Part shown: one piece after another, positions 20,370 through 35,538 of the stretch | Position numbering within the stretch: the first letter of the stretch is position 1 | How the letters are laid out: each line of letters starts with the position of its first letter | NCBI GenBank assembly: GCA_040754875.1 | Contig: JBFMBT010000001.1 | Location: forward strand, 3,937-67,936 | DNA: 64,000 nt | From: Verrucomicrobiota bacterium | Lineage (GTDB): Bacteria; Verrucomicrobiota; Verrucomicrobiia; Limisphaerales; JBFMBT01 | Direction of reading: 5' to 3' | Position numbers and translations under genes: made by a program | The notes under the pieces: generated by a model | Seen by the model: the letters and a program-made list of their open reading frames with translations, nothing else | What the model was told of the DNA's origin: nothing | Database searches by the model: none

Positions 20370-20630
20370 ATGAGCAGTGTGACACTTGAAATTCCGGCCG
20401 AGTTCGCTCGAAGCTTTGGCGCGACTGATGAAGAAGCCGCGCGCAACGCCAAGATCGAACTTGCGATTGAGATGTACCGGGAGGGCAAGTGGTCCACTGG
20501 CAAGGCAGCGGAATTTGCTGGCATGTACACGGGAAAGTTCCTGGACCTGTTGCGCGAGCGGAAGATTGACCGGCCCTACACGCCGGAAATGTTGGAACAG
20601 GACATAAAGCATGCTGGCGGTCGTGTGTGA
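20370..20630 (+). CDS. UPF0175-family antitoxin
   Basis: 86 aa. IELAIEMYREGKWSTGKAAEFAGMYTGKFLDLLRERKI matches the UPF0175 pattern. Overlaps the downstream DUF3368 gene by 20 nt. Confidence 0.75.
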   Translation: MSSVTLEIPAEFARSFGATDEEAARNAKIELAIEMYREGKWSTGKAAEFAGMYTGKFLDLLRERKIDRPYTPEMLEQDIKHAGGRV

Positions 20631-21111
20631 CTCATCACCTTTGGTTTATCTGTCGAAACTAAATCAGTTCCAAATTCTGGAACAGATTTATGACAGCGTG
20701 TTGGTCCCACCTGCGGTTTGGCGCGAGGTCGCGGTGGGAGGGGAGGGTCTGCCAGAATCAGCAAACCTAAAGGCCGCCGTGGCACAAGGGTGGGTCAAAG
20801 TCGAGACCCCTAGCCCACTTGAGGCAATCCAGCTATCCGCCGAGTTGGGCAAGGGGGAAACCCAAGCAATCCTTCTGGCCAAAGAACGCGGCGCGGTACT
20901 GGTGACAGATGATGGTTTGGGGCGAAGCGCCGCAGAGTCCATTGGTGTCGAAGTGACCGGCACAATAGGTGTCCTGATTAAGGGAAAACGCACAGGTCGC
21001 ATTTCTGCGATTAGGCCTCTCGTCGATAGTTTGCGACAGGAGACAAACTTTCGCATGACTGACAAACTTTATCGTGACGCGCTGGCGCAAGCGGGTGAAC
21101 CTCAATCCTAA
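20611..21111 (+). CDS. DUF3368-family PIN-like toxin
   Basis: VCDSSPLVYLSKLNQFQILEQIYDSVLVPPAVWREV ... LGKGETQAILLAKERGAVLVTDDGLGRSAAESIGVEVTGTIGVLIKGK matches the DUF3368 pattern. Confidence 0.75.
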   Translation: MLAVVCDSSPLVYLSKLNQFQILEQIYDSVLVPPAVWREVAVGGEGLPESANLKAAVAQGWVKVETPSPLEAIQLSAELGKGETQAILLAKERGAVLVTDDGLGRSAAESIGVEVTGTIGVLIKGKRTGRISAIRPLVDSLRQETNFRMTDKLYRDALAQAGEPQS

Positions 21112-21113
21112 AA

Positions 21114-22400
21114 ATGAAATCACTCGACGCCAAACTGGCCGACATCAAGGCGAACCGTTCTTCGCGCGCGTTCATCATTGCCGACGCGAAGGACGCGGAC
21201 ATGGCCTTTGGCGTGCGCGCGCCGGGACCGCGCTCTTATCTGGCGAAAAAGGGCGCGCACGCGGCGCAGTTTTCCCCCGAGGTCTGGACGCGCGACGAAT
21301 TCGCCCAGCGCAATCTGCCCGAGTTCCTCGACATCATCCGCGAAGTGGTTCACCAGGGCGTCGTGGACATTGTGCTGATGTCCGCTTCGGTGAACGAACA
21401 ACTCACCATCAAGGAAGGGCTGTTCAAGAATTCGCACATCACACCCGCCGCCCGCGCGAATGACGCCACCGATGTTTGGGCCATCCGCCATGGCAGCTAC
21501 GTCAAGCAACCCGCCCAGCCGTTTCGCTCGGCGACCATCGACCATATTCAATGCGGCAGGATTGAATGCGACCGCACCACCGGCGAATTCCCCGGCGCCA
21601 ATCTCGGCCTGTACTCGGTCACGTTCGTCAACGACCTCGAGCAGGACCGCAAGACCCTGCTGGCCTTCAAGGAATTTCGCGAAGAAGCCGAGCGCAAGCA
21701 GTTCCAATATTTCCTCGAAGTCTTCGACCCCAACGTCAACAGCGGCATCCCGCCGGAGAAGCTGGGCGAATTTATCAACGACAATATTCTCCGCAACCTC
21801 GCCGCCGTGACTGAAGCGGGCCGGCCGCGTTTCCTGAAGATCGTTTATCACGGGCCGCGCTTCATGGAGGAACTCGCCCAATACGATCCGAATCTTGTGG
21901 TGGGCATCCTCGGTGGCGGCGCGGGCACGACGTATGACGCCTTCAAGCTCATTCATGACGCGCAAAAGTACGGCGCGCGCGTCGCGTTGTATGGCCGCAA
22001 GATCAACAACGCCGAGCATCAACTGGCGTTCATCGAGATGTTGCGCCTCATCACCGACGGCCGCATTTCGCCGGAGGAAGCCGTGCGCGCGTATCACGCG
22101 GTGCTCAAGGCGAAGCATATCGCGCCCAAGCTTTCACTGGAAAAAGACCTCGAACTGACCGATCAATCGATGAGCTACGATTCGAACAGCCGCGCGCGTT
22201 CAGTCGTTACCGTTACGCAAAAGCCGTCCTTCAAACCCGGCACGAAGCCTGCCGTGAAAACACCGCAGCCCACCGCCACCTCGCGCAATCCCGAAGCGCC
22301 CTGGCCCGTCAAAGCCGACGGCAAACCCGACTTCGCCAAAATGAATTCCGCCCAACGCCGCGCCTACGACAAGGCCCGCCTGACCCGCATCTACGGTTGA
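21114..22400 (+). CDS. hypothetical protein, aldolase-type TIM-barrel-like (DeoC/LacD/FbaB-like) with Pro/Lys-rich C-terminal tail
   Basis: 428 aa. FIIADAKDADMAFG, FLKIVYHGPRF (candidate Schiff-base Lys) and GILGGGAGTTYDAFKLIHDAQKYGARVALYGRKINNAE resemble class I aldolase barrels. Starts 3 nt after the toxin stop. Weak, memory-based call. Confidence 0.4.
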   Translation: MKSLDAKLADIKANRSSRAFIIADAKDADMAFGVRAPGPRSYLAKKGAHAAQFSPEVWTRDEFAQRNLPEFLDIIREVVHQGVVDIVLMSASVNEQLTIKEGLFKNSHITPAARANDATDVWAIRHGSYVKQPAQPFRSATIDHIQCGRIECDRTTGEFPGANLGLYSVTFVNDLEQDRKTLLAFKEFREEAERKQFQYFLEVFDPNVNSGIPPEKLGEFINDNILRNLAAVTEAGRPRFLKIVYHGPRFMEELAQYDPNLVVGILGGGAGTTYDAFKLIHDAQKYGARVALYGRKINNAEHQLAFIEMLRLITDGRISPEEAVRAYHAVLKAKHIAPKLSLEKDLELTDQSMSYDSNSRARSVVTVTQKPSFKPGTKPAVKTPQPTATSRNPEAPWPVKADGKPDFAKMNSAQRRAYDKARLTRIYG

Positions 22401-22636
22401 TTGCGGGTCGCGCTCCCCTGTAGCAGCCGAGGTAACGAGGCTCTGAATGATGAGCCACCCATGGCTGCCTTCTCCAACGGGCCCGCGACCTCCAAGGCGC
22501 ACGCATGTCGCTCGGTTCACCATCCAATTCCAACCGTCATGATTGTCCGTTGCTTTGCTCCGCGCGAAGCGTCCTGGAGTGCGCCAGTTCGCTTGCTTCG
22601 AGGCACTCGGAACATAGTAAATGTCAGTATCACTTC

Positions 22637-22664
22637 TTGACACGCAAGTTTTAGATGCTAAATT
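22637..22664 (+). promoter_or_regulatory. strong sigma70-like promoter with extended -10
   Basis: TTGACA (22637-22642), 16 nt, then TGcTAAATT (-10 TAAATT at 22659-22664). It lies in an ~0.9-kb ORF-poor gap, ~660 nt upstream of the 23329 start. Confidence 0.45.
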
Positions 22665-23328
22665 GCCCTCAGCAAGGCGTCCCTGCCATGCCTTGCGCAA
22701 AAGGAGGCTCCGGCCAACCCGGCCCCGGCCCCCCAACGATAGCGACCCGGTAGCGCATGAAACACCGCCAACCCGAGCCAGGTCTGCGCTTGGAACTCCA
22801 GGCGCCGCGCACCCCTTTGTACCCCAACTGGTTGCCCACTGGCGTCCCTTGGGTTTTGGCGTTTGCCGTCCCCAACCCTTTGCGGCGTTTTCCACCTCGT
22901 TCCACCTTTTTCCAGCCTCTTCCGTATTGCCGGAGAGATTTTTTCAGGGAGCAACGCCCTCTTGGGGCCGCGGCGGGTTCCCCCACCTCCATGATGGTTC
23001 ACGTACATCCACGTAAATCCACATCAGCCCCATGCAAAAAATTTGTTTGCGGTTCACCCGTTTTACGCCCGGCTGCCATTTCGCGTCCTTGGAGTTTGGA
23101 TTTTGCCGCTTGAAGTTTCCCGGGCATCACGCAACCGCGCCGCACGCGCTGTTCGCGGCCCCCTCCCCCCTGACGAACTCTGAACCCGAACCCTGAACCG
23201 TTGCGCCTGGACCTCGAACCAGCCTTCCAAATGGCGAATCGAATTGTAATTGTTTGCGCCTTTGGGTTATTGCACTCATTACCGTGATGAACGACTCTGA
23301 ATCAAAGGGGCTCTCTTGCGCCGGTTTC

Positions 23329-26300
23329 ATGGCGCGTCTCCGGAGCGCGGCAATCGCCTGGTGCCTACTGTCCTGCGCCCCCGTGTGGGCTCAAACCGAT
23401 CCCTCGCCGGACCACGCCACGGTTTCGCAGGCGGTTGACGTCGTGAAAGTATGGCAGGCGCATCAGCGCCTTTACGTGGCCGGGAACATCGGCGTCAGTT
23501 CGGCACGCCTTGATGAACTGGAACGTTGGCTGGATTCAAATGCGAAGAACTGGACCGTTGTTTTGGTGGAAAGCGCCCGCGGTGAATTCTATCGCGACTC
23601 CGAAGGTTCCAGTTTCTACCTGGTCGATGCCGTCGAGCACGCCCTGGGCAAGGGGCTTTCCAATGAGACTCCGTTCGGGCTGCTGACCGACCCCCGGACG
23701 CAGGAGAAGAACGGCGCGGTATTTGTCCTCTTTCTCAAGGACCGGCAGTTTTCCTATTTTGGCTCCGATGTGTATGACAATCGCGGTCTGGGCGAAAAGC
23801 ATTTCAAAAACATGCTCGACCGTCCGGCCATCGCCGCGATGCGCGGGGGCGGCCGCATCGTTGACGCGGTCAAGGACACGATCATCGACATCGATAAAAG
23901 GCTCGCCCAACGCATCCAGAACGAAATCGAATCGCGCGAAAAGGCCGCCCGCGAAACCAGAACCACCCTCGCCAGCGCGGGCGAGGCGTTGCGGCTATTG
24001 GAACGCAAATCGGCGGACCTGAAGGAAAGCAAGCCGCACCTTTACGGCGACCTCGCCGAACCCGGTGTGCCGCAGTTTCGCGGCGAACTGGCTTCCGCCG
24101 AGGCGATCGCGGCCAGCGATCCGGTCAAGGCGTTGGGAACGGCCAAGCGCGTCCGCGAGCGGTGCGAACAGTTGATCAAGGGCATCGAGCAATATCCCGG
24201 CGACGTCGTGCGCTTCGATTCGCTGGGCCAGCGGCTCGAACGCCAGAGCAAGGCAAAGTATGCGGGCGCTGCTTCGCGCGAAATTCAGAGCGCCCGGGCG
24301 GCGCTCCAGGCGGCACAGGAGGAATACAAGAAGGGCAATTACGCTTACGCGCCGCAGTTGCAAGCCGCCGAGACCGCCGTCATCGCCGTTGAACGCGCCG
24401 TGGCCAGCGCCGTGCGCGGGGCCCAACTCGCCCGCAATGCCGGCATCGGCGCCGGCTTTGGCGTGTTGATTCTCATTGGCGCCGTCGGCTGGGGATTTAA
24501 CCGCCGCCGGTTGCCAGTAAAATTGGAGGCGTTGAAATTGCTCAAGACCTGGGAGGAGGCCCTCGCTTTGAAGAACGGCGCGCTCGTCGAGTTGCTGGAC
24601 CGCCGTCTCACCGTCGTCGGCAGTTCCAGAGAGGAAATCAAATCACAGTTCACCGGCGAAACCCTCCAGCTTGCCGAGCAGGTGGTGAAGGATGTCGATG
24701 CGCTGTTCATCATGACCGCGTGCGCGGACCGCGTGTTGCACGAGGCCCGCAAGCTGTGCGAGCCGTCGGGCAGTTCGAGCCAGTTGACCAATCTGTTTGG
24801 CGCGCGCAATTTCCGCGCCGCGATTCACCGCCTCAGCGAGGAACCCATCACCTTCAAGCCCGAGGAAGCCCTCGAATTCGCGATCAAAGGCACGCGCCAG
24901 ACCCACAGCGGCCTGGCGGGCGAACGCGCGGCCCAGGCCGGATTCTCCATGTCGTTCATCCACCTGATGCGCGAGTTCGAGCAGCGCGCCAAACGTTCCG
25001 TCGCCGCGCTGGATGAAATCGAATCCAGCCTCGTCAATGTCGAAACCACCATCAACGCCAGCCGCAAGGTGATTGCCGGAATCGCGGAACAGGAGGCATC
25101 GCTCTCGCAAACGGCGCAGACCCCGTGCTTTGGCGTGCCGGCCTTGTTTGCGGACGTGTTGCCCGCGATTGGCGAAGAGTTGGACAAGGCGTCCGAAGTG
25201 GGCGTGCGCGATCCGGTGGCCGCCGTGCGCAATCTTGTTCCCGAAGCGCAGCGCAAAACCGAGGAAGCCAAAGCCCTTGCCGACCTCGCCATCACCGCGC
25301 GCCAGCAAATCCTGCCGAAACTCGTGGAAACCACCCAACTCCTGCGCGCCACCGGGCTTTCGGCGGCGTGGCCCGAGCAGGAATTTGCGTTGATGTCCCG
25401 GCAGACGGATGACCTGCTGCCGACGTTGCTTCAACGCACCGTCAACGTCGAAATCCAGGCCTTGCGCCAGCGGCTGGAGCGGCTTTCCGAGCGCATCCAT
25501 GAGACGCTCGAACTCGAAAAGACCCGGCGCGAACTGGCCCTGCCGGCCATCCAGCGCGCCGTCAGCGGCATCGAGTCCATCCGCGCCGACATCGCGAGCC
25601 GCCTGTCGTTGCGCGCGCAAGACGCGTTGCGCGAACCGGGCGCGGAGCCGTCCGAACTGATGCAACGCGCCGCCGCCGAAGCCGAATCCGCGCGCCTGGC
25701 GCTGGATCGCGGCGATACGGGCGCCGCGCGCAATGCGCTGGACATGGCGAACCAGTTGACCGGCGAGGCCAACGCCATGGTGGACGCCACCCGCAAGGCG
25801 TTCGAGGAGCATGAATTGCTCGCCAAAAAGTTGCGCACCGAAACCGCGCGCATCGAAGCGCTGTTGCCCGAACACGCGCGCATCCTGCGCGTGATTCAGG
25901 AAAACTATGCCGCCTCGGTGCTGCCGCTGGGCAGCGGCGATCCGGCGCATCCCAACGCCAACGGCACCATCGCGGATAACTTGCAGGAGGCGAAATCCAG
26001 CCTCGACCGGGCCAACGCGTTGACCGACGAAGCCGTCGGCGAATTTCGCGCCGCGCAAATCCTGAAGGCGGCGGACCAATTGCGCCGCGTGCAAGGGCTC
26101 CACGAGTTCGCCTTGTTCCGCTTGCAGGAAATCGCCGACAAGGAAAAGCGCCTGGGCGATGCCGTCACCGCCAATGGCCGCTCGCTGGCGGAGTTGGACA
26201 ACGACGCCCGCCAGTTAAGCACCACCGTCGATGACGCGCGCACCATGAACGCCACGGTCAGTGCGTTCGCCCAGGCCAAGGCCCAGTTGGAAGCCGCCCG

Positions 26301-27153
26301 GGCGGCGATGGCCGCGCATCCGTCCGATCCCTTCGAGGCGGCTGACCTTTTGGCGCGCGTCGGCGAGGCGTTCAAGGAAATCGACACAATGGCGCGCAAT
26401 GACCGCGACATCTTCGCCGAAGCCGAGAGCAGCGTGCGCGCCGCGCAAGGCCAGCTTTCCGCCGCGCAGTCACTGGCTGCACAAGCGGCATCGGATAATG
26501 TCCTGGACAGCGCGGCCATCCTCACCGCGCGTCGCGAACTTCAAGCGCTTGAGCCTCGACTGATTGTCGCGCAACAAACCCTCAAGCAATCCCACGCCAA
26601 CTGGGAAGACCTCGACCAGGAAGCGGACGCCATCACGGCCGATGCCGGGCGGCACGCGGCGACCTTGCGCGGCGAAATGCAGGCCGCCGAGTCGGCCATG
26701 CGCGTCATCAGCGATGCGGCACAGTTCGTGCGCTCCGCCAGTGTCTGGCGCGGCGGCTACAGTGTGAAGATTGTCGGCAGCCCCGGCGGCAACCGGCTGC
26801 AAGATGCGCGGCACGCGCTGTCCGTGGCGGATTACCATCAAGCGCTCGCGCTGGCGGAAGCCGCGCGGCGCGAGGCGGCATCGGCCATCGCCTCGGCGGA
26901 AGCGGAAGTGCGCCGCCAGAAGCGCCTGGAAGAAGAGCGCGAAGAGGCCGAGCGCCGCGCAAGACGCGCCGCCGAATCCCGTCGCCGATCGAGTTGGGAC
27001 AGCGACAGTTCCTCAAGCCGGGGCGGCGGTTCTTCGAGCAATTGGGGTGGAGGCGGTGGCTCCAGTTCGTCGTCCAGTTGGGGCAGCAGCGGCAGCGGTT
27101 TCGGCTCATCCAGCTCTTCCAGCGGCTCGGGCTTTGGCCGTTCGGGGTGGTAG
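23329..27153 (+). CDS. giant bitopic membrane protein: signal peptide + TPM domain + coiled coil + TM + ~850-aa helical region + Gly/Ser-rich tail
   Basis: MARLRSAAIAWCLLSCAPVWAQ is a signal peptide. LDELERWLDSNAKNWTVVLVES...NGAVFVLFLKDRQFSYFGSDVY...AMRGGGRIVDAVKDTI fits the TPM (TLP18.3/Psb32/MOLO-1) pattern. TM is GIGAGFGVLILIGAVGWGF followed by NRRR. The tail is SSSRGGGSSSNWGGGGGSSSSSSWGSSGSGFGSSSSSSGSGFGRSGW. The start could be TTG 23254 or ATG 23287. Confidence 0.7.
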   Translation: MARLRSAAIAWCLLSCAPVWAQTDPSPDHATVSQAVDVVKVWQAHQRLYVAGNIGVSSARLDELERWLDSNAKNWTVVLVESARGEFYRDSEGSSFYLVDAVEHALGKGLSNETPFGLLTDPRTQEKNGAVFVLFLKDRQFSYFGSDVYDNRGLGEKHFKNMLDRPAIAAMRGGGRIVDAVKDTIIDIDKRLAQRIQNEIESREKAARETRTTLASAGEALRLLERKSADLKESKPHLYGDLAEPGVPQFRGELASAEAIAASDPVKALGTAKRVRERCEQLIKGIEQYPGDVVRFDSLGQRLERQSKAKYAGAASREIQSARAALQAAQEEYKKGNYAYAPQLQAAETAVIAVERAVASAVRGAQLARNAGIGAGFGVLILIGAVGWGFNRRRLPVKLEALKLLKTWEEALALKNGALVELLDRRLTVVGSSREEIKSQFTGETLQLAEQVVKDVDALFIMTACADRVLHEARKLCEPSGSSSQLTNLFGARNFRAAIHRLSEEPITFKPEEALEFAIKGTRQTHSGLAGERAAQAGFSMSFIHLMREFEQRAKRSVAALDEIESSLVNVETTINASRKVIAGIAEQEASLSQTAQTPCFGVPALFADVLPAIGEELDKASEVGVRDPVAAVRNLVPEAQRKTEEAKALADLAITARQQILPKLVETTQLLRATGLSAAWPEQEFALMSRQTDDLLPTLLQRTVNVEIQALRQRLERLSERIHETLELEKTRRELALPAIQRAVSGIESIRADIASRLSLRAQDALREPGAEPSELMQRAAAEAESARLALDRGDTGAARNALDMANQLTGEANAMVDATRKAFEEHELLAKKLRTETARIEALLPEHARILRVIQENYAASVLPLGSGDPAHPNANGTIADNLQEAKSSLDRANALTDEAVGEFRAAQILKAADQLRRVQGLHEFALFRLQEIADKEKRLGDAVTANGRSLAELDNDARQLSTTVDDARTMNATVSAFAQAKAQLEAARAAMAAHPSDPFEAADLLARVGEAFKEIDTMARNDRDIFAEAESSVRAAQGQLSAAQSLAAQAASDNVLDSAAILTARRELQALEPRLIVAQQTLKQSHANWEDLDQEADAITADAGRHAATLRGEMQAAESAMRVISDAAQFVRSASVWRGGYSVKIVGSPGGNRLQDARHALSVADYHQALALAEAARREAASAIASAEAEVRRQKRLEEEREEAERRARRAAESRRRSSWDSDSSSSRGGGSSSNWGGGGGSSSSSSWGSSGSGFGSSSSSSGSGFGRSGW

Positions 27154-27369: not shown

Positions 27370-27969
27370 ATGAACCGTGTTCCACAAAGGATGCCAGCGA
27401 AGCTTTCCGGTTCCCTCCGGTGCGTCGCGCTGATCCGCGCATCGTTGGTGGCGCTCGCGGCGTTGCCCTTGCACGCCGGCCAGACGAACGACACTCGCTC
27501 CGCGGAGGCGTACCGCGTGATCGCGGACCGCAACTTGTTTGGATTGAAGGCGGCGGCGCACACCAATCCAGCGGCGGCCGCGGCGCCGGCCGCCAGTGAG
27601 CCGGGTTACAAGCTGGCCGGCATTACGGTGGTGCCGCCGAAGAAGATCGCGTTTGTGGTGAAACAGGAGCGCGGGGCGGCAGACCAGCACTTCGCGCTGA
27701 GTGAAGGGCAGAAGGACGGAAACCTGGAGGCGCTGTGGATTGATTATCCGGGCGGCACGGTTTTGCTGCGCGAAGGGCGGCAGAACATCGTGCTTTCGTT
27801 CGACGCTCAGGCGCGGGAGCGCATCACCGCGGAACTGGCGGAGCAGCAATTCAACGAGGAACACCAGCGCGCGCATGAGTTGAACGAAAGGCTCGAACAA
27901 GAACGGGTGGAACGCGAACTGGCGGAGACGGCGCAAGCGAAAGGGGAAGCCAAACCATTGAATCATTGA
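27370..27969 (+). CDS. PilP/GspC-like domain protein with charged coiled-coil C-terminus
   Basis: N-terminal anchor, then YRVIADRNLFGL and YKLAGITVVPPKKIAFVVKQ...EGQKDGNLEALWIDYPGGTVLLREGRQNIVLSF (the pattern of PilP/GspC HR domains). Tail rich in E/R/Q. Confidence 0.5.
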   Translation: MNRVPQRMPAKLSGSLRCVALIRASLVALAALPLHAGQTNDTRSAEAYRVIADRNLFGLKAAAHTNPAAAAAPAASEPGYKLAGITVVPPKKIAFVVKQERGAADQHFALSEGQKDGNLEALWIDYPGGTVLLREGRQNIVLSFDAQARERITAELAEQQFNEEHQRAHELNERLEQERVERELAETAQAKGEAKPLNH

Positions 27970-27970
27970 G

Positions 27971-28675
27971 ATGAGACAAAGACCAAAGTTCCACACAATC
28001 CTGCTGGGGGCGCTGGCGGCGCTGACGCCGGAAGCAGGCGCTCAAGTGCGCTCGCTGACACTCGGCATCCAGGTGAACAGCCCGTATGGCATCTCCGAAC
28101 CATGGGTGGGGCTGCGCGAAGAGCTGGTGAAGTTCCCCGGAATCGAGTGGGTCAGCGAACGGCCCGCGACGCAGGCCGAAACATGCGAGGTGCGCCCGCG
28201 TGGCGGGCGGTTGCTGGACGCATCGCAACTCGACGAATTCATCCGCAACACAGGCGCGGGCGCCAGCTTGCGCGGGATGGAAGCGACGGTGGACGGCACG
28301 CTGAAGAAACGCGATGGCAAGGCGGTGATCCGGCTTGCGGGCACGGAAGAGGTGCTGGCGCTGGCGGCGCTGACGCAGAAGGTTCAATACGATTTTGGAA
28401 ACAAGAAACCGCACGCGCCGACGCAGGAAGAACGCGCAGCATACGACACCCTGCTCGCCCGTTGGGGCGGTGAACCGCGCGCAGTGCGCATCACGGGGCC
28501 GTTGACAAAGGCGGCTGACCAGACGCTCACGCTGCAAGTCCGGCAGTTTGAGTCGCGGGCCGAACAAAACGATTTCAAGAGGAAAAACACTCCCGGCGCG
28601 ACTGCGCCTCGCTCGGGAAGCCACGCGCAGGGTGGCGGGGAAAGCAAGGGCGCTCCTACCCAAAGCAAACAATGA
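27971..28675 (+). CDS. secreted hypothetical protein, paralog A (ferredoxin-like/HMA-like N-terminal domain, no Cys pair)
   Basis: Signal peptide ILLGALAALTPEAGAQ. QVRSLTLGIQVNSPYGISEPWVGLREELVKFPGIEWVS...ASLRGMEATVDGTL aligns along its length with the 30461-31090 product. Starts 2 nt after the previous stop, with an ATGA overlap to the next gene. Confidence 0.6.
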   Translation: MRQRPKFHTILLGALAALTPEAGAQVRSLTLGIQVNSPYGISEPWVGLREELVKFPGIEWVSERPATQAETCEVRPRGGRLLDASQLDEFIRNTGAGASLRGMEATVDGTLKKRDGKAVIRLAGTEEVLALAALTQKVQYDFGNKKPHAPTQEERAAYDTLLARWGGEPRAVRITGPLTKAADQTLTLQVRQFESRAEQNDFKRKNTPGATAPRSGSHAQGGGESKGAPTQSKQ

Positions 28676-30405
28676 AAGCAAACCACCTGCACAACTACGC
28701 GGCATCGTTCGCGCGATGCCTTGCCGTTCCAAAGATCGCTTGCGCGGTCTTGCTGGGCGCGTTTTCCGCGCTCCTGACCTCCACGCCTGTCATGGCGCAA
28801 CCCTCGTCGGTCGGCCAGTGGGACACGGTGAAAACCCTGCCGTGGCGACCGGTGCATTCCGTCCTGATGAAAACCGGAACGATCATGTTCTACCCGGCCA
28901 GCGACGATCCGCGCGAATGGAATCCCTCGGGCGAGACGCTGACCACGTTGACGAAGTTCTCCTACAATCCGTTTTGCAACGGCCACGCGCAGATGCCCGA
29001 CGGCAAAATCCTCTTCACCGGCGGCCACAACCAGACCAACAACTGGGGTTTGTGGAACATTTCGTTGTTCAATCCGGACAACAAGACCTGGAAACATCTG
29101 CCGGACATGACCGACGGCCGCTGGTACCCCTCACAGATCATGATGGCCAACGGCGACATTCTCACGGTCTCAGGGACCAAGAGCACAGGTAACAACAACT
29201 CCACACCAGACGTGCTCCAGATCTCCAACGGCCAGGTGCGGCGGTTGACCAATGCGGTGCTTTCCATGTCGTTGTATCCGGCCATGTTTCTTGCGCCGAA
29301 CGGGCAGGCGTTCATTGCCACCGCCACATCGCGTTACTTGAACACGTCGGGCGGCGGCACATTGACCACGGTGGCCAACCGCATCGTGTCGGGCCGCGAC
29401 AATTACGGCTCGGCCTGCATGTATGAGCCGGGCAAGGTCATTTACACGGGCGGCGGTGACGCTCCCGTGGCAACCACCGAATCCATTGACCTCAACGCCG
29501 GCACTCCCGCTTGGAGCGCCAAGGCGTCGATGCCGCAGGCGCGCCGGCAGCATAACGCCACCATCCTGCCCGATGGCCGCGTGCTGGTGACCGGCGGCAG
29601 CAGTTCATCCGGGTTCAACACGGCCGACGGCTCGAAGCCGGCCATCGTGTGGAATCCAGCCAATAACACCTGGACCACGTGGGCCACGGAAGCCAATTAT
29701 CGCGGCTATCATTCCGAAGCGGTGTTGTTGCCGGATGCGCGCGTGATCAGCGTGGGTGGTGACGGTCAGGCGAATTACCAGATCTTCTCGCCGCCTTATT
29801 TGTTCGCGGGCACGCGGCCTTCCATCACCTCGGCGCCAACCAACATCACCCACGGCTCGGCGTTCACCGTCGGTTTCTCCAGCGGCCCCATCGGCAAGGT
29901 GACGATGTTGCGCCCGGCCTCGGTGACGCATACGAAGAACATGAACCAACGTTACAATTCGCTGTCGTTCACGGTGTCCGGCAGCAACCTGACCGTGACC
30001 GCGCCGGCGAATGCCAATGTCTGTCCGCCGGGCTTCTACATGCTCTTCATCGTAAAGACGACGGGTGAACCTTCCGTCTCCCGGTGGATTCACATCGGCA
30101 GCACGTCGGGTTTGAATCCGAGCACGCCGGCCATACCGACGGGCCTGACCGCGACGGCACTCAGTTCGACCAGCGTACGGCTGAACTGGACGGACGCCTC
30201 GAGCAATGAGTCCGGCTTCAAGATCGAGCGCCGGCTCAATGCTTCGGCGAAGCCGTGGTCGCGCATCGCCACGGTGGGCGCCGGTGTCACGACTTACACG
30301 AACACCGGTCTGACAGCCGCGACGAGCTACCGTTATCGCATTCGCTCGTATAACAGCGCGGGCCATTCGCCCTACACGGCGGAAGTGACGGTGACCACTC
30401 CGTAA
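28672..30405 (+). CDS. galactose oxidase / glyoxal oxidase-like copper radical oxidase with DUF1929-like and FN3 C-terminal domains
   Basis: Kelch-like blades with candidate active-site residues: NPFCNGH (Cys for the Tyr-Cys crosslink), DGRWYPS (Tyr), NYRGYHSEA (Tyr-His), ASVTHTKN (His). C-terminal LTATALSSTSVRLNWTDASSNESGFKIERR is FN3. N-terminal signal/anchor present. Confidence 0.8.
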   Translation: MKANHLHNYAASFARCLAVPKIACAVLLGAFSALLTSTPVMAQPSSVGQWDTVKTLPWRPVHSVLMKTGTIMFYPASDDPREWNPSGETLTTLTKFSYNPFCNGHAQMPDGKILFTGGHNQTNNWGLWNISLFNPDNKTWKHLPDMTDGRWYPSQIMMANGDILTVSGTKSTGNNNSTPDVLQISNGQVRRLTNAVLSMSLYPAMFLAPNGQAFIATATSRYLNTSGGGTLTTVANRIVSGRDNYGSACMYEPGKVIYTGGGDAPVATTESIDLNAGTPAWSAKASMPQARRQHNATILPDGRVLVTGGSSSSGFNTADGSKPAIVWNPANNTWTTWATEANYRGYHSEAVLLPDARVISVGGDGQANYQIFSPPYLFAGTRPSITSAPTNITHGSAFTVGFSSGPIGKVTMLRPASVTHTKNMNQRYNSLSFTVSGSNLTVTAPANANVCPPGFYMLFIVKTTGEPSVSRWIHIGSTSGLNPSTPAIPTGLTATALSSTSVRLNWTDASSNESGFKIERRLNASAKPWSRIATVGAGVTTYTNTGLTAATSYRYRIRSYNSAGHSPYTAEVTVTTP

Positions 30406-30419
30406 CCAGCGTTGATAGT

Positions 30420-30460
30420 GGGGCGGGTCGCAAGGCCCGCCCCGGTTTCCTGATTTGCTT
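30420..30460 (+). terminator. GC-rich stem-loop + T-rich tail between the oxidase and paralog B
   Basis: GGGGCGGG (30420-30427), 8-nt loop, CCCGCCCC (30436-30443), then GGTTTCCTGATTTGCTT. Confidence 0.5.
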
Positions 30461-31090
30461 ATGAAACCTTGTTTACGATTGCCGCGATCGGTGTTCGCGT
30501 GCGTCGCGTTGCTCGCGCTGGCTGGTTCCACGCTGCGCCTTGAGGCTGAGGTCCGCTCTTACGCGCTGGGCGTGGGCGTGAATTGTCCTTACGGCCTGCC
30601 TGAGTGTTATTACGCGTGGCGGGAGCAGATGTTGCGCCTGGAGGGCGTGGCCTGGGTTAGTGAGGAAGCCGACTTTGCGACGGAGACGCTGGCGCTTCGT
30701 TCGCGTGAAGGCCGGCTGCTGGACCCGCAAGTCGTGGCGAAATACATTTCCGAGCTCGGCGTGGGCGCGCGGTTACGCGGCATGGAAGCGACCGTGGTGG
30801 GAACCGTCGAGAAGCGTGATGACAAATTCCTGCTCCGCGTGTCGGGCAGCGGCGAAGTGTTGCCGCTGGGTTCGTGCGAAACGAAGGTGCAATATCGTTT
30901 CGAGACGAAGAAGCCGCATCCCCGGACGACCCAGGAGCGGCGCGCCTTTCGGGCGTTGCAAAAGGAAATGAGTTCGCCGCAGCGCGCCGCCGTGATCACG
31001 GGCCCGCTGGTCCGTGATAAAAAGGGCGTCCTGACACTGCAAGTGCGCACATACGAATTGCCGGAAGCGAAGCAGGCGCGCGCGCAATGA
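30461..31090 (+). CDS. secreted hypothetical protein, paralog B (HMA-like domain with CPYGLPEC Cys pair)
   Basis: Signal peptide MKPCLRLPRSVFACVALLALAGS. EVRSYALGVGVNCPYGLPECYYAWREQMLRLEGVAWVS...ARLRGMEATVVGTV is paralogous to 27971-28675. Confidence 0.6.
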   Translation: MKPCLRLPRSVFACVALLALAGSTLRLEAEVRSYALGVGVNCPYGLPECYYAWREQMLRLEGVAWVSEEADFATETLALRSREGRLLDPQVVAKYISELGVGARLRGMEATVVGTVEKRDDKFLLRVSGSGEVLPLGSCETKVQYRFETKKPHPRTTQERRAFRALQKEMSSPQRAAVITGPLVRDKKGVLTLQVRTYELPEAKQARAQ

Positions 31091-31096
31091 CGCGGG

Positions 31097-32557
31097 TTAT
31101 TGCTTTTGCTTCGCCTTCTTTTTGCCGCCGGCGGCCGCGTTCGGGTCGGTGTTCACCTTTGTCGCGCCTTTGCGCGCGGCAAGCTCCACGGGTTCGAGCA
31201 CGCGCCCTTTGTCGTCGCTCTCCGTGAGCCACTTCTCCAGCGCCGCGCGCATCCGCTTGAGCACATCCTGGTGCGCCGGCGATTTCGCCAGGTTGTTGAT
31301 CTCGTAAGGGTCCATGTCGAGGTCATACAGTTCCTCCTCGGGCATGGTGGGCGCGGTGAGGAATTTCTGGACGGGCGTGAGCTTGCCCTGCGCATCAAGT
31401 TCCTTCAGGAGGTTCCAGACCGGATAACTGCGTTCCTTGTAGGCGTTCGGCTGGAGGAACGGCCGCTCCGGCGTGAAGTTGCGGATGTACCGGTAACGCG
31501 CGTCGCGCGCGCTGCGCAGGCGGAACACCGTCTCGTCGCAACGATCGCGCGCGCCAAAGGCGTACTGGCGCGGCGACTCCGCGTGGTCGCCCAGGAAGAT
31601 GCGGCCTTGCATGCCCGCGGGCTTCTTCGCGCCCGCGATGTCCAGCGAAGTCGCGGTGAAGTCAATCGCCTCCAGCAACCGCGTGTCCACCGTGCCGGGC
31701 CGGAATTGCTTCGGTGCAGGAAAATCCTTTGCCCACCGGATGATCAGCGGAATGTGCAGGCCACTTTCGTAAACGAACTGTTTTCCACGCACGTGCGCCT
31801 GCCCGTGGTCGCCAAAGAAAAAGATGATCGTGTTGTCCGCCAGGCCATCGGCCTCCAGTTGCTTCAGCACAATGCCGATCTTGCGGTCCACTTCGGTTGC
31901 TTCATCCAGATACGCCGCCCAGTCCGCGCGCGTCACCGGATGGTCCGGATAATACGGCGGGATGATGACCTTGGCCGGGTCGGCCTTCTTCGGCGCGCTG
32001 AAGGCACGATGCGTCTCGGAAAAATTGACCTGCGCGTAGAATGGCTGGTGCGACTTCAGGTCCGCCCATTGATCCGAATCAAACGGCTTGCCTTCGTAGG
32101 TGAAATTCCAGTCGGTCTTGGCGGTGCCACTGATGCCCGCGCCGGCGGGAAACGCTTTCACGTTCGCGGTGAAATAGCCGGCGTCGCGCATCCAGTCGCT
32201 GATGACCCGCACGCCCGCCGGCAGTTTGTAACCGTCGTCGCGATGCGAGCGATGATTGTGCGCGCCAATCGTCGTTTGGTACATGCCCGTCATGAGACCC
32301 GAGCGGCTGGCCGAACACACCGGCGCCGTCGTGTAAGCGCGCGTGTACCGCACGCCCTCCGCGGCCAGGCGGTCCAGGTTCGGCGACCACACCTGCTGCG
32401 TGCCGTAGCACCCCAGTTCCGGTCCAAAATCCTCGGCGATAAGCCAGAGAATGTTCGGGCGTTTCCTGGCGTCCGCGGCGGGCGACTGCATCGTCGCAAA
32501 GCAAACGACGGACAACACCAGCAGGGCCCGGCAAATGGATGAAGCGATTGTTTTCAT
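31097..32557 (-). CDS. sulfatase (arylsulfatase A family)
   Basis: Signal peptide, PNILWLIAEDFGPELGCYG, and formylglycine motif PVCSASRSGLMTG (C-x-A-x-R variant). Confidence 0.9.
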   Translation of the reverse strand: MKTIASSICRALLVLSVVCFATMQSPAADARKRPNILWLIAEDFGPELGCYGTQQVWSPNLDRLAAEGVRYTRAYTTAPVCSASRSGLMTGMYQTTIGAHNHRSHRDDGYKLPAGVRVISDWMRDAGYFTANVKAFPAGAGISGTAKTDWNFTYEGKPFDSDQWADLKSHQPFYAQVNFSETHRAFSAPKKADPAKVIIPPYYPDHPVTRADWAAYLDEATEVDRKIGIVLKQLEADGLADNTIIFFFGDHGQAHVRGKQFVYESGLHIPLIIRWAKDFPAPKQFRPGTVDTRLLEAIDFTATSLDIAGAKKPAGMQGRIFLGDHAESPRQYAFGARDRCDETVFRLRSARDARYRYIRNFTPERPFLQPNAYKERSYPVWNLLKELDAQGKLTPVQKFLTAPTMPEEELYDLDMDPYEINNLAKSPAHQDVLKRMRAALEKWLTESDDKGRVLEPVELAARKGATKVNTDPNAAAGGKKKAKQKQ

Positions 32558-32664
32558 GGAGTGAATCGATTATTCGCCGCGAACTCGCGCGGTCAAATCC
32601 TTTGTTGCAATTGACCGTCTTCCCATCCCGCCGCCAATCAGTTATGGTTGCCGCCATTCCGATT

Positions 32665-34101
32665 ATGAAACTCTCCCGCGCGCTCTGCCTGCTGACACTC
32701 TTGTTGTTCGCCGCGCCGCTTCAAGCCGCGCCACCACCCAACATCCTGTTCATCATGGCCGACGACCTCGGCTGGGCCGACCTCGCGGGTTACGGCGCGG
32801 ATTTGCACGAGACGCCGCACCTCGACCGCCTCGCGCGCCAGGGCATGCGCTTCACCGATGCTTACGCCGCCGCGCCGGTCTGCTCGCCCACGCGTTCGAG
32901 CATCATGACCGGCAAGTTCCCCGCGCGCCTGCACATCACCATCTGGTATGAAGGCGCGCTCCAACGCCCGCAAAATCGCGCGCTCATCCCGCCGCAACCC
33001 ACGGCCAATCTTCCGCACAGCGAAATCACCATCGCCGAGGCGCTCAAGGCCGCCGGTTACTTCACCGCGCACGTCGGCAAATGGCATCTCGGCGATGCCG
33101 CGTTTTACCCGGAGACGCAGGGCTTCGACGTGAACATCGGCGGCACCTTCTGGGGCGCGCCGAGCACCTTCTTTTATCCATACCGCGGCAAATGGGGTAA
33201 CACCGAGGAAGTGCGTTACGTGCCGCATCTGGAATTTGGCAAGGACGGCGAATTTCTCACCGACCGCCTGACGGACGAGGCCATGAATGTCATCGACCGC
33301 GCCGCGGACCGCCCGTTCTTCCTGAACCTCTGGTATCACAACCCGCACACGCCCATCGAAGCCAAACCCGCGCTCGTCGAACATTATCAAAAGAAACTCA
33401 AGCCTGGCCTGAACCATCAAAACGCCGCCTACGCCGCGATGATTCATTCGCTCGACGAAAACATCGGCCGCCTCATGGCGAAGCTCGAACAAAAGGGCCT
33501 CGCCGATCGCACTGTCGTCATCTTCACCTCGGACAACGGCGGTTTCATCAACGACTACAAAGGCGCGAAGGTCACCAGCAACGCGCCGTTGCGCTCGGGC
33601 AAAGGCTCGCTGTACGAAGGCGGCCTGCGCGTGCCGCTCCTCATTCGCTGGCCGGGCGTCGTGAAGCCCGGCGCGGAATGCCGCGCACCCGTGGTGTCGC
33701 ATGATTTTTATCCCACGCTGCTGGAACTGGCCGGGACCAAAGGCGACGCGCGCCATAATCAGTCCGTGGACGGCCTGAGCCTCGTGCCGTTGTTGAAGAA
33801 CCCGCGGGCCACACTCGCGCGCGACACGCTCTATTTTCATTACCCGCATTATTACCCGACCACGTCGCCCGTCAGCGCCTTGCGCTCGGGCGATTGGAAG
33901 CTCCTCGAATACCACGAAGACCAGCGCCTGGAGCTTTTCAATCTGAAGAACGATTTGGGCGAAGCGACCAATCTCGCGGCGCGACAGCCGGACCAGGCGC
34001 AGGTCCTGCGCGCCAAGCTTCATGCCTGGCGCCAGGCTGTCGGCGCCCAGATGCCGGAACCCAATCCGGACTTCAAATCAAAGCAAGGAAAGAAGAAGTA
34101 A
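32665..34101 (+). CDS. sulfatase
   Basis: MKLSRALCLLTLLLFAAPLQA signal, PNILFIMADDLGWADLAGYG, PVCSPTRSSIMTG. An alternative ATG lies at 32644. Confidence 0.9.
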   Translation: MKLSRALCLLTLLLFAAPLQAAPPPNILFIMADDLGWADLAGYGADLHETPHLDRLARQGMRFTDAYAAAPVCSPTRSSIMTGKFPARLHITIWYEGALQRPQNRALIPPQPTANLPHSEITIAEALKAAGYFTAHVGKWHLGDAAFYPETQGFDVNIGGTFWGAPSTFFYPYRGKWGNTEEVRYVPHLEFGKDGEFLTDRLTDEAMNVIDRAADRPFFLNLWYHNPHTPIEAKPALVEHYQKKLKPGLNHQNAAYAAMIHSLDENIGRLMAKLEQKGLADRTVVIFTSDNGGFINDYKGAKVTSNAPLRSGKGSLYEGGLRVPLLIRWPGVVKPGAECRAPVVSHDFYPTLLELAGTKGDARHNQSVDGLSLVPLLKNPRATLARDTLYFHYPHYYPTTSPVSALRSGDWKLLEYHEDQRLELFNLKNDLGEATNLAARQPDQAQVLRAKLHAWRQAVGAQMPEPNPDFKSKQGKKK

Positions 34102-34164: not shown

Positions 34165-35538
34165 ATGAAGAAGAATTCCCTCCGCGCCATTCCGGCGGTT
34201 GAAAAACTCGTCCACGCGTTGGGTGACACCCCCGTGCCCCGGCCGGTCGTGGTGGCGGTGGCGCGCCGCGAAATTGCGGCCTTGCGCGGAGAAAAGGACA
34301 TCCCTTCATTCGACGACGTGCTTGCCCGCGTGCGCGCGGCCGTTGTGGCCGTTGCCTCGTCGCGCATCCAACCGCTGGTCAACGGCACCGGCATCGTCAT
34401 TCACACCAACCTTGGCCGTTCTCCGCTCGGGCCGGCGGTCGTGGAAACGTTGCAGATCATCGCGTCCAATTATAACAACCTGGAATACGACATCGCGGGC
34501 GGCGAGCGTGGCGGGCGCGCCGCGTATCTCGAGCACAACCTCGCGCTGCTCTGCCAGGCCGAAGCCGCCACCGTGACCAACAATTGCGCCGCCGCGCTCG
34601 TGCTCATCCTGCGCCACTTTACCGCGGGCGAACGCAAGGAAGTCATCATCTCGCGCGGCGAACTCGTCCAGATCGGCGGCGGTTTTCGCATTCCCGACAT
34701 CCTCGAAACCAGCGGCGCCGCGTTGCGCGAGGTCGGCACCACCAACAAAACGACGCTGGGCGATTACGCGCGCGCCATCGGCCCGCGCACCGCCCTGATT
34801 CTCAAGGTGCATCGCAGCAATTTCTTCATGGGCGGCTTCGTCGAATCGCCGTCCACGGAGGAAATCGCCGCCCTCGCGCGTAGAAAGAAGGTGCCGTTCG
34901 TCGAGGACCTGGGCAGCGGGGCCGTGGTGCCCACGGAAAAACTCGCCGCCATCGAGCATGAACCCACGCCCGCCGAGGTGCTGAAACACGGTGTGGATCT
35001 GCTTTGTTTCAGTGGCGACAAGCTGCTGGGCGGCCCGCAGGCCGGCATCATCGCGGGCAAGGCCAGACTCGTCGCCGCGGTAAAACGCGAGCCGTTCTTC
35101 CGCGCGTTGCGCTGCGATAAATTGATCCTCTCCGCCCTGCAAACCACCGTGGATCTTTACCTCTCCGGCCAGGCTGACCTCGCCGTGCCCACGCTCGCGC
35201 TGCTGCGCGCGTCCAACGACGAACTCCGCGCGCGGGCCGAAAAGCTGGCGGCCGCACTCGCCGGACTGCCACTCAAGGCCACCGTCGGACTGGGAAAAGC
35301 GCAGGTTGGCGGCGGCACCCTCCCCCGTTCTACCATCGAATCGGTGACACTCGACCTCCTGCCACAAGGAATCGCGCTGGCTGAATTCGCGCAGCGGCTC
35401 CGCCTGGGGACACCGGCGATCATCGGCTACGTTGCCGCCGGCAGGTTCAAACTCGACCTCCGCACCATCTTCCCCCGCCAGGACGAACTACTCATCAACG
35501 CGATTAAACGCTGCGCCGGATTGGTCAAGGAGCCTTGA
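34165..35538 (+). CDS. selA: L-seryl-tRNA(Sec) selenium transferase
   Basis: NGTGIVIHTNLGRSPL and FSGDKLLGGPQAGII (PLP-Lys) are SelA signatures. Confidence 0.9.
   Translation: MKKNSLRAIPAVEKLVHALGDTPVPRPVVVAVARREIAALRGEKDIPSFDDVLARVRAAVVAVASSRIQPLVNGTGIVIHTNLGRSPLGPAVVETLQIIASNYNNLEYDIAGGERGGRAAYLEHNLALLCQAEAATVTNNCAAALVLILRHFTAGERKEVIISRGELVQIGGGFRIPDILETSGAALREVGTTNKTTLGDYARAIGPRTALILKVHRSNFFMGGFVESPSTEEIAALARRKKVPFVEDLGSGAVVPTEKLAAIEHEPTPAEVLKHGVDLLCFSGDKLLGGPQAGIIAGKARLVAAVKREPFFRALRCDKLILSALQTTVDLYLSGQADLAVPTLALLRASNDELRARAEKLAAALAGLPLKATVGLGKAQVGGGTLPRSTIESVTLDLLPQGIALAEFAQRLRLGTPAIIGYVAAGRFKLDLRTIFPRQDELLINAIKRCAGLVKEP

Follow-up and report, generated by a model that had tools for sequence, protein, structure and literature searches.

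Canonical TPM proteins (PF04536), such as the 290 aa YgcG of E. coli, consist of a signal peptide, an outside head of ~140 aa with a characteristic order of four strands and four helices, a membrane anchor and, in the cytoplasm, a tail rich in Gly/Ser whose last residue is Trp. There is precedent for TPM domains as adaptors or accessories in membrane complexes (PMC13456599; bioRxiv 10.1101/2024.10.28.620569), and AscF/AscG of the mycobacterial CIII-CIV supercomplex, MOLO-1 and TLP18.3/Psb32, in which the fold is such a module, are small proteins with known partner complexes and no long rod. A phosphatase/nucleotidase role has been proposed for TLP18.3, Rv2345 and the TPM domains BA41 and BA42, phosphatase or ATPase activity is reported for some TPM domains, and ATPase activity of BA41 and Ca-binding by BA42 have been described; not every accepted TPM protein shows metal binding or phosphatase/nucleotidase activity, and TPM sequences are too divergent for sequence methods (PMC13456599; bioRxiv 10.1101/2024.10.28.620569). 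In EzrA a single TM helix precedes a long series of helical bundles, and there is neither an extracytoplasmic domain nor a Gly/Ser tail.

The window analysed here (a 64,000 nt stretch of contig JBFMBT010000001.1 from a Verrucomicrobiota bacterium) encodes a giant protein with the same succession of signal peptide, outside head, anchor and Trp-terminated tail as the canonical TPM proteins, to which it adds a stalk of ~190 aa before the TM helix and ~815 aa of juxtamembrane domain and rod after it. The giant protein has one hydrophobic segment where YgcG has several, and its tail is Ser-rich with Arg where the canonical tail is Gly-rich. The features of the locus are as follows.

22637..22664, + strand: sole sigma-70-like promoter match upstream, TTGACA-16-TAAATT, ~665 nt upstream
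23329..27153, + strand: complete gene, 1274 codons plus stop (ORF list and translation)
23329..23394, + strand: signal-peptide-like N-terminus, residues 1-22, MARLRSAAIAWCLLSCAPVWA followed by Q
23434..23856, + strand: periplasmic alpha/beta head with predicted TPM-like fold, residues 36-176 (AF2 and Foldseek)
23857..24435, + strand: periplasmic helical stalk, residues 177-369 (AF2 model)
24436..24501, + strand: single TM helix, residues 370-391 (sole Kyte-Doolittle segment above threshold)
24502..25128, + strand: cytoplasmic juxtamembrane domain, residues 392-600 (AF2: helical for the most part; two short strands, a single disordered loop)
25129..26943, + strand: cytoplasmic helical-repeat rod, residues 601-1205, units C1-C7 (AF2 and hhalign)
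25936..25968, + strand: conserved non-helical loop GDPAHPNANGT, residues 870-880, between C3 and C4 (family consensus GDxxHPxANxT)
26944..27150, + strand: end of an Arg/Glu-rich helix, then a Ser/Gly/aromatic low-complexity tail to Trp, residues 1206-1274

A stand-alone, length-invariant family

The giant reading frame of ~1270 aa reported by the initial annotation was confirmed: within an enclosing ORF at 23254..27153 (+), the ATG at 23329 is the best start, and the resulting 1274 aa open with a signal-peptide-like stretch. A 100% identical protein (P0001) carries an NCBI call that is 18 codons shorter, at 1256 aa. Homologs (n=108) were nearly all 1239-1391 aa long, with a median of 1285.5 (sd 29) in the 52 that were aligned, and full-length members were found in Verrucomicrobiota, Planctomycetota and a few Myxococcota. 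The gene is not an assembly fusion of two genes, an outcome for which the initial annotation had allowed, since over 100 homologs share its length. The idea that an assembly or annotation artefact joined two genes, for which no supporting point was found and whose probability is negligible, is already refuted, as the whole architecture and its length are kept in the 52 aligned homologs from independent assemblies in two phyla.

Every one of these more than 100 homologs is labelled 'hypothetical' and is without Pfam or NCBIfam coverage. The whole protein gave no match above threshold in Pfam, NCBIfam, PADLOC or PHROGs, with sub-threshold matches to DUF5076, DUF2207_C, Matrilin_ccoil and LmuB, and a full-length profile searched against PDB sequences returned coiled-coil or low-complexity noise only. 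DUF2207 (PF09972/PF20990) and LemA (PF04011) have similar Gly-rich tails or are neighbours of TPM genes; the DUF2207_C match fell well below the Pfam cutoff (E=0.11, 12.6 bits against 33), the Pfam scan of the window protein found no LemA, and literature searches on TPM with LemA, and on PVC spectrin-like membrane proteins, found nothing relevant. A component of a defence system and a phage protein were both rejected as explanations. Across 185,579 GTDB species genomes, 187 stretches in Verrucomicrobiota, Planctomycetota and Myxococcota matched the family, a lower bound as the scan demands exact pattern matches. Shorter family matches, checked as bridges to canonical TPM proteins, were nearly all fragments from contig ends or frameshifts. 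This is a real, conserved, uncharacterised membrane-spanning family of ~1,280 residues, found mainly in PVC bacteria.

The single hydrophobic segment, GIGAGFGVLILIGAVGWGF, lies at residues 370-391 and is followed by NRRR (residues 391-394, a positive-inside motif), as the initial annotation had described together with the signal peptide. Conservation reaches 90% or more at R394 and at N391, the nearly invariant residue that opens the motif; the TM helix measures 22 +/- 0 aa across the family, and an N-terminal hydrophobic segment is present in most homologs. Judged from these sequence signals, the protein is shown to be single-pass in the inner membrane, N-out and C-in. Together with the neighbourhood analysis described below, the data show a stand-alone single-pass protein, a member of a small family of invariant length that occurs mainly in Verrucomicrobiota and Planctomycetota.

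The periplasmic head and the TPM fold

The head was found to be the most conserved part of the protein, with a mean pairwise identity of 0.57, a length of 141 +/- 1.7 aa and 28 conserved columns per 100 aa, among them the polar residues R139, S142, Y143, S146, D150, D164, R172, R176 and D179. Its AlphaFold (AF2) model (pLDDT 95.6) has four core strands and four helices, and carries an extra beta-hairpin after strand 2 that is added relative to BA41 and BA42, the latter a stand-alone soluble domain. When this model was compared with 350,542 PDB chains by Foldseek, the top-ranked matches were the TPM domains 5anp, 2lt2 and 4oa3, that is BA41 (5ANP; probability 1.00) and BA42 (4OA3/2LT2; 0.96) of Bizionia argentinensis; no other chain searched came closer to the predicted head, and that both are TPM domains is confirmed in the literature (PMC13456599; bioRxiv 10.1101/2024.10.28.620569). 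The match had E=0.013, a target-normalised TM of 0.60 and an rmsd of 4.8 A at 14-17% identity to BA41/BA42, and these two were the only ones returned among roughly seven solved TPM families. The predicted head model accordingly shows a four-stranded sheet with four flanking helices, with TPM structures nearest.

At the sequence level the TPM-like domain proposed by the initial annotation did not hold, and 'no TPM hit' for residues ~30-200, the result which that annotation had named as counting against it, was formally obtained. The window protein did not match PF04536 at E<=1 (gathering score 22.1 bits), while the positive control YgcG scored 128.5 bits (E=1.9e-37), and only 1 of 33 family heads matched, at E=0.15. 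Comparison of the head profile (A4) by hhalign with an 18-sequence YgcG-type TPM profile, which is narrow and covers one subfamily since the word-indexed search gave mainly close YgcG relatives, returned a probability of 0.27% and E=0.22, with the two collinear over 118 columns under permissive settings only; profile-profile comparison with YgcG alone was likewise insignificant. The head profile found no TPM chain among PDB sequences, only coiled-coil or low-complexity noise, and a head HMM run against 1.84 billion proteins recovered 346 representatives only and did not reach the canonical TPM proteins.

The failure of every one of these sequence-based tests (Pfam, PDB profile, the HMM search, hhalign and the 33 heads), the modest Foldseek statistics and the restriction of matches to BA41 and BA42 would all fit a head that is not homologous to TPM, namely a convergent alpha/beta sandwich in a new family whose likeness in topology and tail is coincidental. 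We consider this unlikely, as BA41 and BA42 rank at the top of all chains searched, the order of strands and helices is equal to that of TPM, the motif alignment is collinear, the family and canonical TPM proteins share a rare Gly/Ser tail ending in W, and TPM sequences, as is known, have diverged too far for such methods. The 'TPM' label holds at the level of predicted fold and architecture only.

Helical repeats and the Trp-terminated tail

The ~190 aa of coiled coil that had been placed before the TM helix proved to be a helical stretch of ~193 aa, for which the model confidently gives a bundle of helical hairpins and not a plain coiled coil (confident AF2 helices at fragment positions 155-212, 225-238, 243-285, 290-313 and 318-346), with repeat units P2 (247-311) and P3 (312-369). 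After the membrane, the juxtamembrane domain (identity 0.34, length 210 +/- 4.7 aa) had no Pfam or PDB match. The sequence beyond the TM helix was confirmed as helical and rich in Ala, Leu, Glu and Arg (A18 L11 E9 R9 %), and the rod was modelled as all-helical (pLDDT 90.2), with helices of ~22 and ~50 residues alternating by DSSP. The AlphaFold models are of monomer fragments only. Within the rod, segment lengths were 170 +/- 0.8, 202 +/- 7.5 and 233 +/- 2.5 aa at 26-33% identity, and polar residues conserved at 90% or more were scattered singly along it with no evident catalytic motif. The GDxxHPxANxT loop, which the model shows as non-helical (fragment positions 469-489), is kept in the divergent P0211.

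The recurring motifs noticed in the helical region were found to be real internal repeats. The unit pairs C3~C4, C5~C6, P3~C7 and P2~C3 scored 26-28.5 by hhalign, while the highest score among 132 reversed-profile controls was 20.5. By this profile comparison the helical units are shown to be true internal repeats on both sides of the membrane, with rod and stalk units homologous. Alternating helices and internal repeats together are compatible with tandem three-helix bundles joined by long helices. The conservation of rod segment lengths, almost to the residue at ~27% identity, fits the ruler or scaffold idea of the initial annotation, whose comparison of the rod with EzrA or spectrin did not stand up: against PDB, the best Foldseek match of the cytoplasmic model was to designed bundles (E=0.09), the alpha-actinin rod scored E=5.4 and EzrA was absent among the 50 matches listed; EzrA 4uy3 matched weakly (E=1.9), and the periplasmic stalk model only; and neither sequence nor fold comparison linked the protein to EzrA (PF06160; PDB 4UXV/4UY3) or to spectrin repeats, for which there was no Pfam match.

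The aromatic-spaced Gly/Ser tail was present as described. The tail has a composition of S38 G22 R14 %, and its last 60 aa are 73% S+G, with spaced W/F residues, SGSGxxRS-type repeats and a terminal W that is kept in 51 of 52 homologs. The family end (...SGSGxxRSGW) resembles those of the canonical TPM proteins YgcG (...GGGGASGRW) and P0282 (...GGGGAGGSW). In 1.37 Mb of PVC loci, all 74 ORFs with a Ser/Gly tail ending in W belonged to the giant family, with none outside it. The order of signal peptide, outside domain, TM helix and Gly-rich tail to Trp that is typical of TPM proteins, as judged against two canonical examples, is thus kept in the giant.

Genomic context and candidate functions

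The gene lies 216 nt upstream of a cluster (27370-31090) that holds a glyoxal/galactose-oxidase-like gene, on the same strand and without a terminator-like site between them, so that the position given by the initial annotation, directly upstream of a copper-oxidase cluster, was correct. The functional association did not survive comparison of loci. No homolog of any oxidase-cluster gene occurred within 8 kb in the 84 other loci, and no neighbour family occurred in more than 8 of 85 loci (ORF clustering, plus four individual look-ups), apparent recurrences being one Pirellula sub-clade and ubiquitous sulfatases. As there is no conserved neighbour in 85 loci, the copper-oxidase link is coincidental; operon membership was rejected, and the proposal that the gene is a functional part of this copper-radical-oxidase (glyoxal-oxidase-like) cluster is very improbable and already effectively refuted by synteny. 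The strong promoter and long leader claimed for the gene were not upheld: the single sigma-70-like site upstream is at chance level (1 found, 0.6 +/- 0.7 expected), the promoter and terminator scan gave nothing above chance, and Rfam found nothing in the leader or the whole window.

As a whole, the protein is tentatively best explained as a transmembrane scaffold or spacer without a catalytic role, descended from proteins of the TPM-TM-tail type. The ancestor would have been an ordinary TPM-TM-Gly-tail protein into which a helical unit was inserted and tandemly duplicated on both membrane sides. The conserved head may bind a partner or ligand in the periplasm or the membrane, the rod, rigid and of fixed length, may present or position something a set distance away from the membrane, and the tail, being flexible, may serve as a contact in the cytoplasm or at the membrane interface. 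Such a role, as scaffold or spacer, would parallel that of TLP18.3/Psb32, MOLO-1 and AscF, which serve membrane complexes as accessory or adaptor subunits, the model we adopt for the giant.

Its conserved head would also suit a membrane-anchored periplasmic phosphatase or nucleotidase whose cytoplasmic rod merely regulates or localises it: no other part of the protein comes near the head in conservation, its high identity and its clustered polar residues, invariant or almost so, could mark an active site just as readily as a binding site, and some TPM domains are reported to be active. This enzymatic role appears improbable, given that TPM catalytic residues are undefined, that AscF and MOLO-1 are non-catalytic adaptors, that the giant matches none of the active TPM enzymes in sequence and that it is difficult to see why a periplasmic hydrolase would carry a fixed-length cytoplasmic region of ~880 aa as an accessory. 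Somewhat less probable again is an EzrA- or cytoskeleton-like arch, a curved rod with a TM anchor at one end and the Trp tail at the membrane interface at the other, organising division, budding or membrane shaping. The TM anchor followed by serial helical bundles of alternating short and long helices, the conserved tail with aromatics and a terminal W, and the appearance of EzrA 4uy3 among the weak matches to the stalk all agree with an arch, in which linked three-helix repeats would be read from the DSSP pattern only. The absence of a significant EzrA or spectrin match in fold or sequence, the patchy distribution of the family (at least 187 stretches in the species genomes), the lack of division genes adjoining its loci, and a large periplasmic part with repeats of its own, unlike EzrA, argue against it. 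An equally slim chance attaches to a PVC (and in a few cases myxobacterial) ruler or tether, in which a rigid rod, exact in length to the residue, would run without a break from a periplasmic TPM-like sensor head through the membrane and hold the Arg-rich helix and the disordered RS/FG-like tail at a fixed distance inside the cell, tethering or organising with respect to the envelope some cytoplasmic assembly (nucleic acid, ribosomes or a condensate, for example); if true, one repeat unit on both sides would make an unusual repeat array straddling the bilayer.

If the giant were no more than a structural oddity with a redundant function, its impact would be modest. On the predicted models, the family would stretch the minimal TPM-TM-tail design to over four times its size, the rod being confidently folded and constant in length, and because head and Trp-terminated tail are ~800 residues apart and separately manipulable, it offers an unusually tractable handle on both. 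The family merits a Pfam or DUF entry, and with it the few PVC-specific candidates for cell biology gain a well-defined envelope protein that is unannotated and restricted to certain lineages.

Gene model, topology and family range

A single long ORF of the window (23254..27153, + strand) holds the giant gene, which encodes 1274 residues when read from the ATG at 23329. The N-terminus of the protein looks like a signal peptide (MARLRSAAIAWCLLSCAPVWA followed by QTDP), and a hydropathy scan found exactly one TM segment, GIGAGFGVLILIGAVGWGF, at residues 370-391, which closes on the N of NRRR (residues 391-394). The positive-inside rule places ~347 residues outside the membrane and ~880 inside. 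Ser+Gly account for 73% of the final ~60 residues, which are interspersed with W/F and end in ...GSGFGRSGW. With the ORF, the signal-peptide form, the one TM segment and the tail composition all found as described, the descriptive core of the initial annotation was correct.

The public record of the gene, P0001 (MAG Verrucomicrobiota AB1705_00170), is an NCBI call of 1256 aa, 18 aa short of our reading. Going by length, its start would be the GTG at residue 19, 18 codons in, so that window positions 23329-23382 are omitted and the signal peptide is lost; such an annotation could mislead topology predictions. A 486-aa antisense ORF (24643-26103, - strand) lies wholly within the giant gene, as do several more of 150-200 aa, and most likely these are not genes but by-products of a GC-rich, Ala-rich coding strand.

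Searched against 5.8 billion protein clusters, the protein gave 108 relatives, nearly all aligning across >90% of its length at 26-45% identity. Every one is annotated as 'hypothetical' and carries no Pfam domain; they originate from Verrucomicrobiota and Planctomycetota MAGs, plus one Myxococcus. The 52 full-length members that were aligned (median 1285.5 aa, sd 29) each had a single internal TM segment, and all except one ended in ...SGSGxxRS(G/S)W (51/52). A pattern scan of 185,579 GTDB species genomes gave 187 matching stretches, a lower bound as exact pattern matches were needed, in Verrucomicrobiae, Verrucomicrobiales including Rubritalea, Pirellulaceae, Pirellula, Mariniblastus, Aureliella, some 'Phycisphaerae'-labelled MAGs and Archangium violaceum. 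No second copy was present within the window. That the ORF might be an assembly fusion of two genes, a possibility raised beforehand, was rejected because length (1239-1391 aa in nearly all 108 relatives) and architecture are kept across the family.

The family head also occurs in a few rare architectures. P0131 joins head and TM to a C-terminus resembling, by eye, a DnaJ J-domain (HPD motif); in P0218 the head sits at residues 413-578, behind a helical, lipoprotein-like N-terminal extension and ahead of a different C-terminus of non-membrane type; in P0178 and P0172 the periplasmic stalk is much shortened or absent. These four could represent real domain shuffling or assembly chimeras.

The head and its relation to TPM proteins

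An AlphaFold2 model of residues 23-369, with a 92-sequence alignment as input, reached a mean pLDDT of 95.6 and gave the head the order strand-helix-strand-helix-strand-strand-helix-helix. This matches the order by which TPM domains are defined in the literature, namely four strands with four helices on their flanks and a 'rather variable' sequence. When the modelled periplasmic part was searched against 350,542 PDB chains with Foldseek, the top match was BA41 (5anp; probability 1.00, E=0.013, TM 0.60), with BA42 ranking beside it (2lt2, probability 0.96; 4oa3, 0.72), both being accepted TPM structures (PMC13456599; bioRxiv 10.1101/2024.10.28.620569). The fold of the head, as modelled, is TPM-like. 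The tail is a further feature in common, as both complete canonical TPM proteins examined (n=2) finish with a Gly-rich stretch and a terminal Trp, and across 1.37 Mb of PVC DNA tails of this type were confined to ORFs of the giant-protein family.

At the level of Pfam, the TPM domain of the initial annotation did not hold: a Pfam scan found no PF04536 match in the giant protein, and only 1 of 33 family heads touched that model (E=0.15). An NCBIfam scan of the protein gave no match, and the head profile found no PDB chains. Against 1.84 billion representatives the same profile recovered 346 proteins at E<=0.001, all family members or fragments thereof, so the canonical TPM proteins, a large family, are beyond the reach of HMMER. 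Comparison by hhalign with an 18-sequence TPM profile built around E. coli YgcG (itself confirmed as PF04536, E=1.9e-37) gave E=0.22 and a probability of 0.27%. A permissive run was collinear across 118 columns, pairing WTVVLVE with IAVLIVP, NGAVFVLFLKDRQFSY with DDGILIVVA..DRTVRI and RGLGE with GYGLE, an alignment of sequences that is suggestive, not significant. As the head fails these sequence-based tests, annotation as PF04536 is not appropriate. That the head is not homologous to TPM is a live alternative, in keeping with these profile results; the modelled fold, the BA41 and BA42 matches and the tail point the other way, and the head is quite probably a very divergent TPM relative.

Helical stalk, rod and conservation pattern

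The periplasmic stalk (177-369) and the cytoplasmic region (392-1200) were both confidently modelled as all-helical by AlphaFold2 (cytoplasmic model pLDDT 90.2, pTM 0.59), with ~22-residue helices alternating with ~50-residue helices from ~residue 600 on. The recurring helical motifs of the initial annotation were borne out, as four pairs of helical units from the stalk (P2, P3) and the rod (C3-C7) scored 26.4-28.5, against no score >20.5 in a reversed-profile control of 132 comparisons. The units are real internal repeats at the level of sequence profiles, and the P3-C7 and P2-C3 matches place one repeat unit on both sides of the membrane.

Matches between helical units (hhalign)
P3 (312-369) and C7 (1151-1205): probability 90.8%, score 28.2
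P2 (247-311) and C3 (771-860): probability 81.9%, score 26.4
C3 (771-860) and C4 (878-972): probability 76%, score 28.5
C5 (973-1060) and C6 (1061-1150): probability 71%, score 27.8

Mean pairwise identity and length of regions across the family
Head (36-176): identity 57%, 28 conserved columns per 100 aa; length 141 +/- 1.7 aa
Juxtamembrane (392-600): identity 34%; length 210 +/- 4.7 aa
Rod C1-C2 (601-770): identity 28%; length 170 +/- 0.8 aa
Rod C3-C4 (771-972): identity 26%; length 202 +/- 7.5 aa
Rod C5-C7 (973-1205): identity 33%; length 233 +/- 2.5 aa

Polar residues conserved in >=90% of members are dispersed singly along the rod, with no recognisable catalytic motif seen there, and its invariant residues P774, G795, P1001, G1153 and Y1169 fall at helix starts or turns of the model. 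The head carries a conserved polar cluster (R139, S142, Y143, S146, D150, D164, R172, R176, D179). This pattern is the signature of a putative extracytoplasmic site, for specific binding or for catalysis, coupled to a rigid, geometry-constrained structural element on the inner side.

A non-helical loop, GDPAHPNANGT (residues 870-880; window 25936-25968), is strongly kept inside the otherwise weakly conserved rod (family consensus GDxxHPxANxT) and is present in the divergent 1487-aa homolog P0211; it is a candidate for an interaction site or a site of metal binding.

Genomic setting, origin and role

All ORFs lying up to 8 kb from the gene at 85 loci were clustered; neither this nor four individual look-ups found a neighbour family present in >8 of the 85 loci, and the giant gene stands alone. 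The neighbours that recurred were sulfatases, which are hugely expanded in PVC genomes, and those shared within a single sub-clade of closely related Pirellula. PADLOC and PHROGs gave no match.

Features around the giant gene
20370-20630, + strand, UPF0175 protein (E=1.4e-19)
20611-21111, + strand, PIN/DUF3368 protein, overlapping the UPF0175 gene
21114-22400, + strand, 428-aa ORF, no Pfam match
22200-22895, - strand, 231-aa ORF, no Pfam match
22890-22923, tandem array, TTCCACCTC x3.4
23000-23022, tandem array, CACGTAAATC x2.3
23174-23199, tandem array, CGAACCCTGAACC x2
27370-31090, + strand, four tightly packed or overlapping ORFs, the third copper-radical-oxidase-like
31097-32557, - strand, sulfatase
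32539-34101, + strand, sulfatase
34165-35538, + strand, SelA, L-seryl-tRNA selenium transferase (E=1.4e-120)

The third of the four ORFs (28672-30405) matches the Pfam glyoxal-oxidase N-terminus, Kelch repeats, GO-like E-set and fn3, which indicate a copper-radical-oxidase-like (glyoxal/galactose-oxidase-like) protein; its 199-, 234- and 211-aa partners had no Pfam match. A link between this cluster and the giant gene had been proposed; the oxidase-like gene and its flanking ORFs were absent from all other surveyed loci, and the adjacency is therefore coincidental. The UPF0175 and PIN/DUF3368 pair, ~2 kb upstream, resembles a type II toxin-antitoxin module, and the SelA gene points to selenocysteine synthesis in this organism.

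Upstream of the giant gene, the 'strong promoter' once proposed came down to a sole sigma-70-like site ~665 nt before the ATG, at chance-level frequency, and no Rfam families were found anywhere in the window. The length of the leader depends on whether the candidate 231-aa minus-strand ORF is a real gene. The three short tandem arrays (periods ~7-13 bp) fall in the ~430 nt before the start codon and might serve as protein-binding sites or represent simple low complexity.

A canonical TPM-TM-tail protein would have given rise to the family by insertion of a helical unit and its tandem duplication. Some TPM proteins are described in the literature as serving membrane complexes in an accessory or adaptor capacity, and by analogy the giant protein may act as a non-enzymatic transmembrane scaffold or spacer. 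An enzymatic head is a live alternative to that role, and the conserved polar cluster would suit an active site as it would a binding site. An EzrA-like arch is likewise live, given the all-helical cytoplasmic region; the best Foldseek match of that model was to designed bundles (E 0.09), talin, vinculin and the alpha-actinin rod gave E>=1, and no EzrA entry was among the 50 matches listed. As the region has no meaningful solved relative, the earlier 'spectrin/EzrA-like' label is just a loose analogy. No account of a protein of this kind turned up in the literature searched. The giant-protein family is genuine and previously without annotation, and is a new, greatly enlarged form of TPM-type membrane protein.
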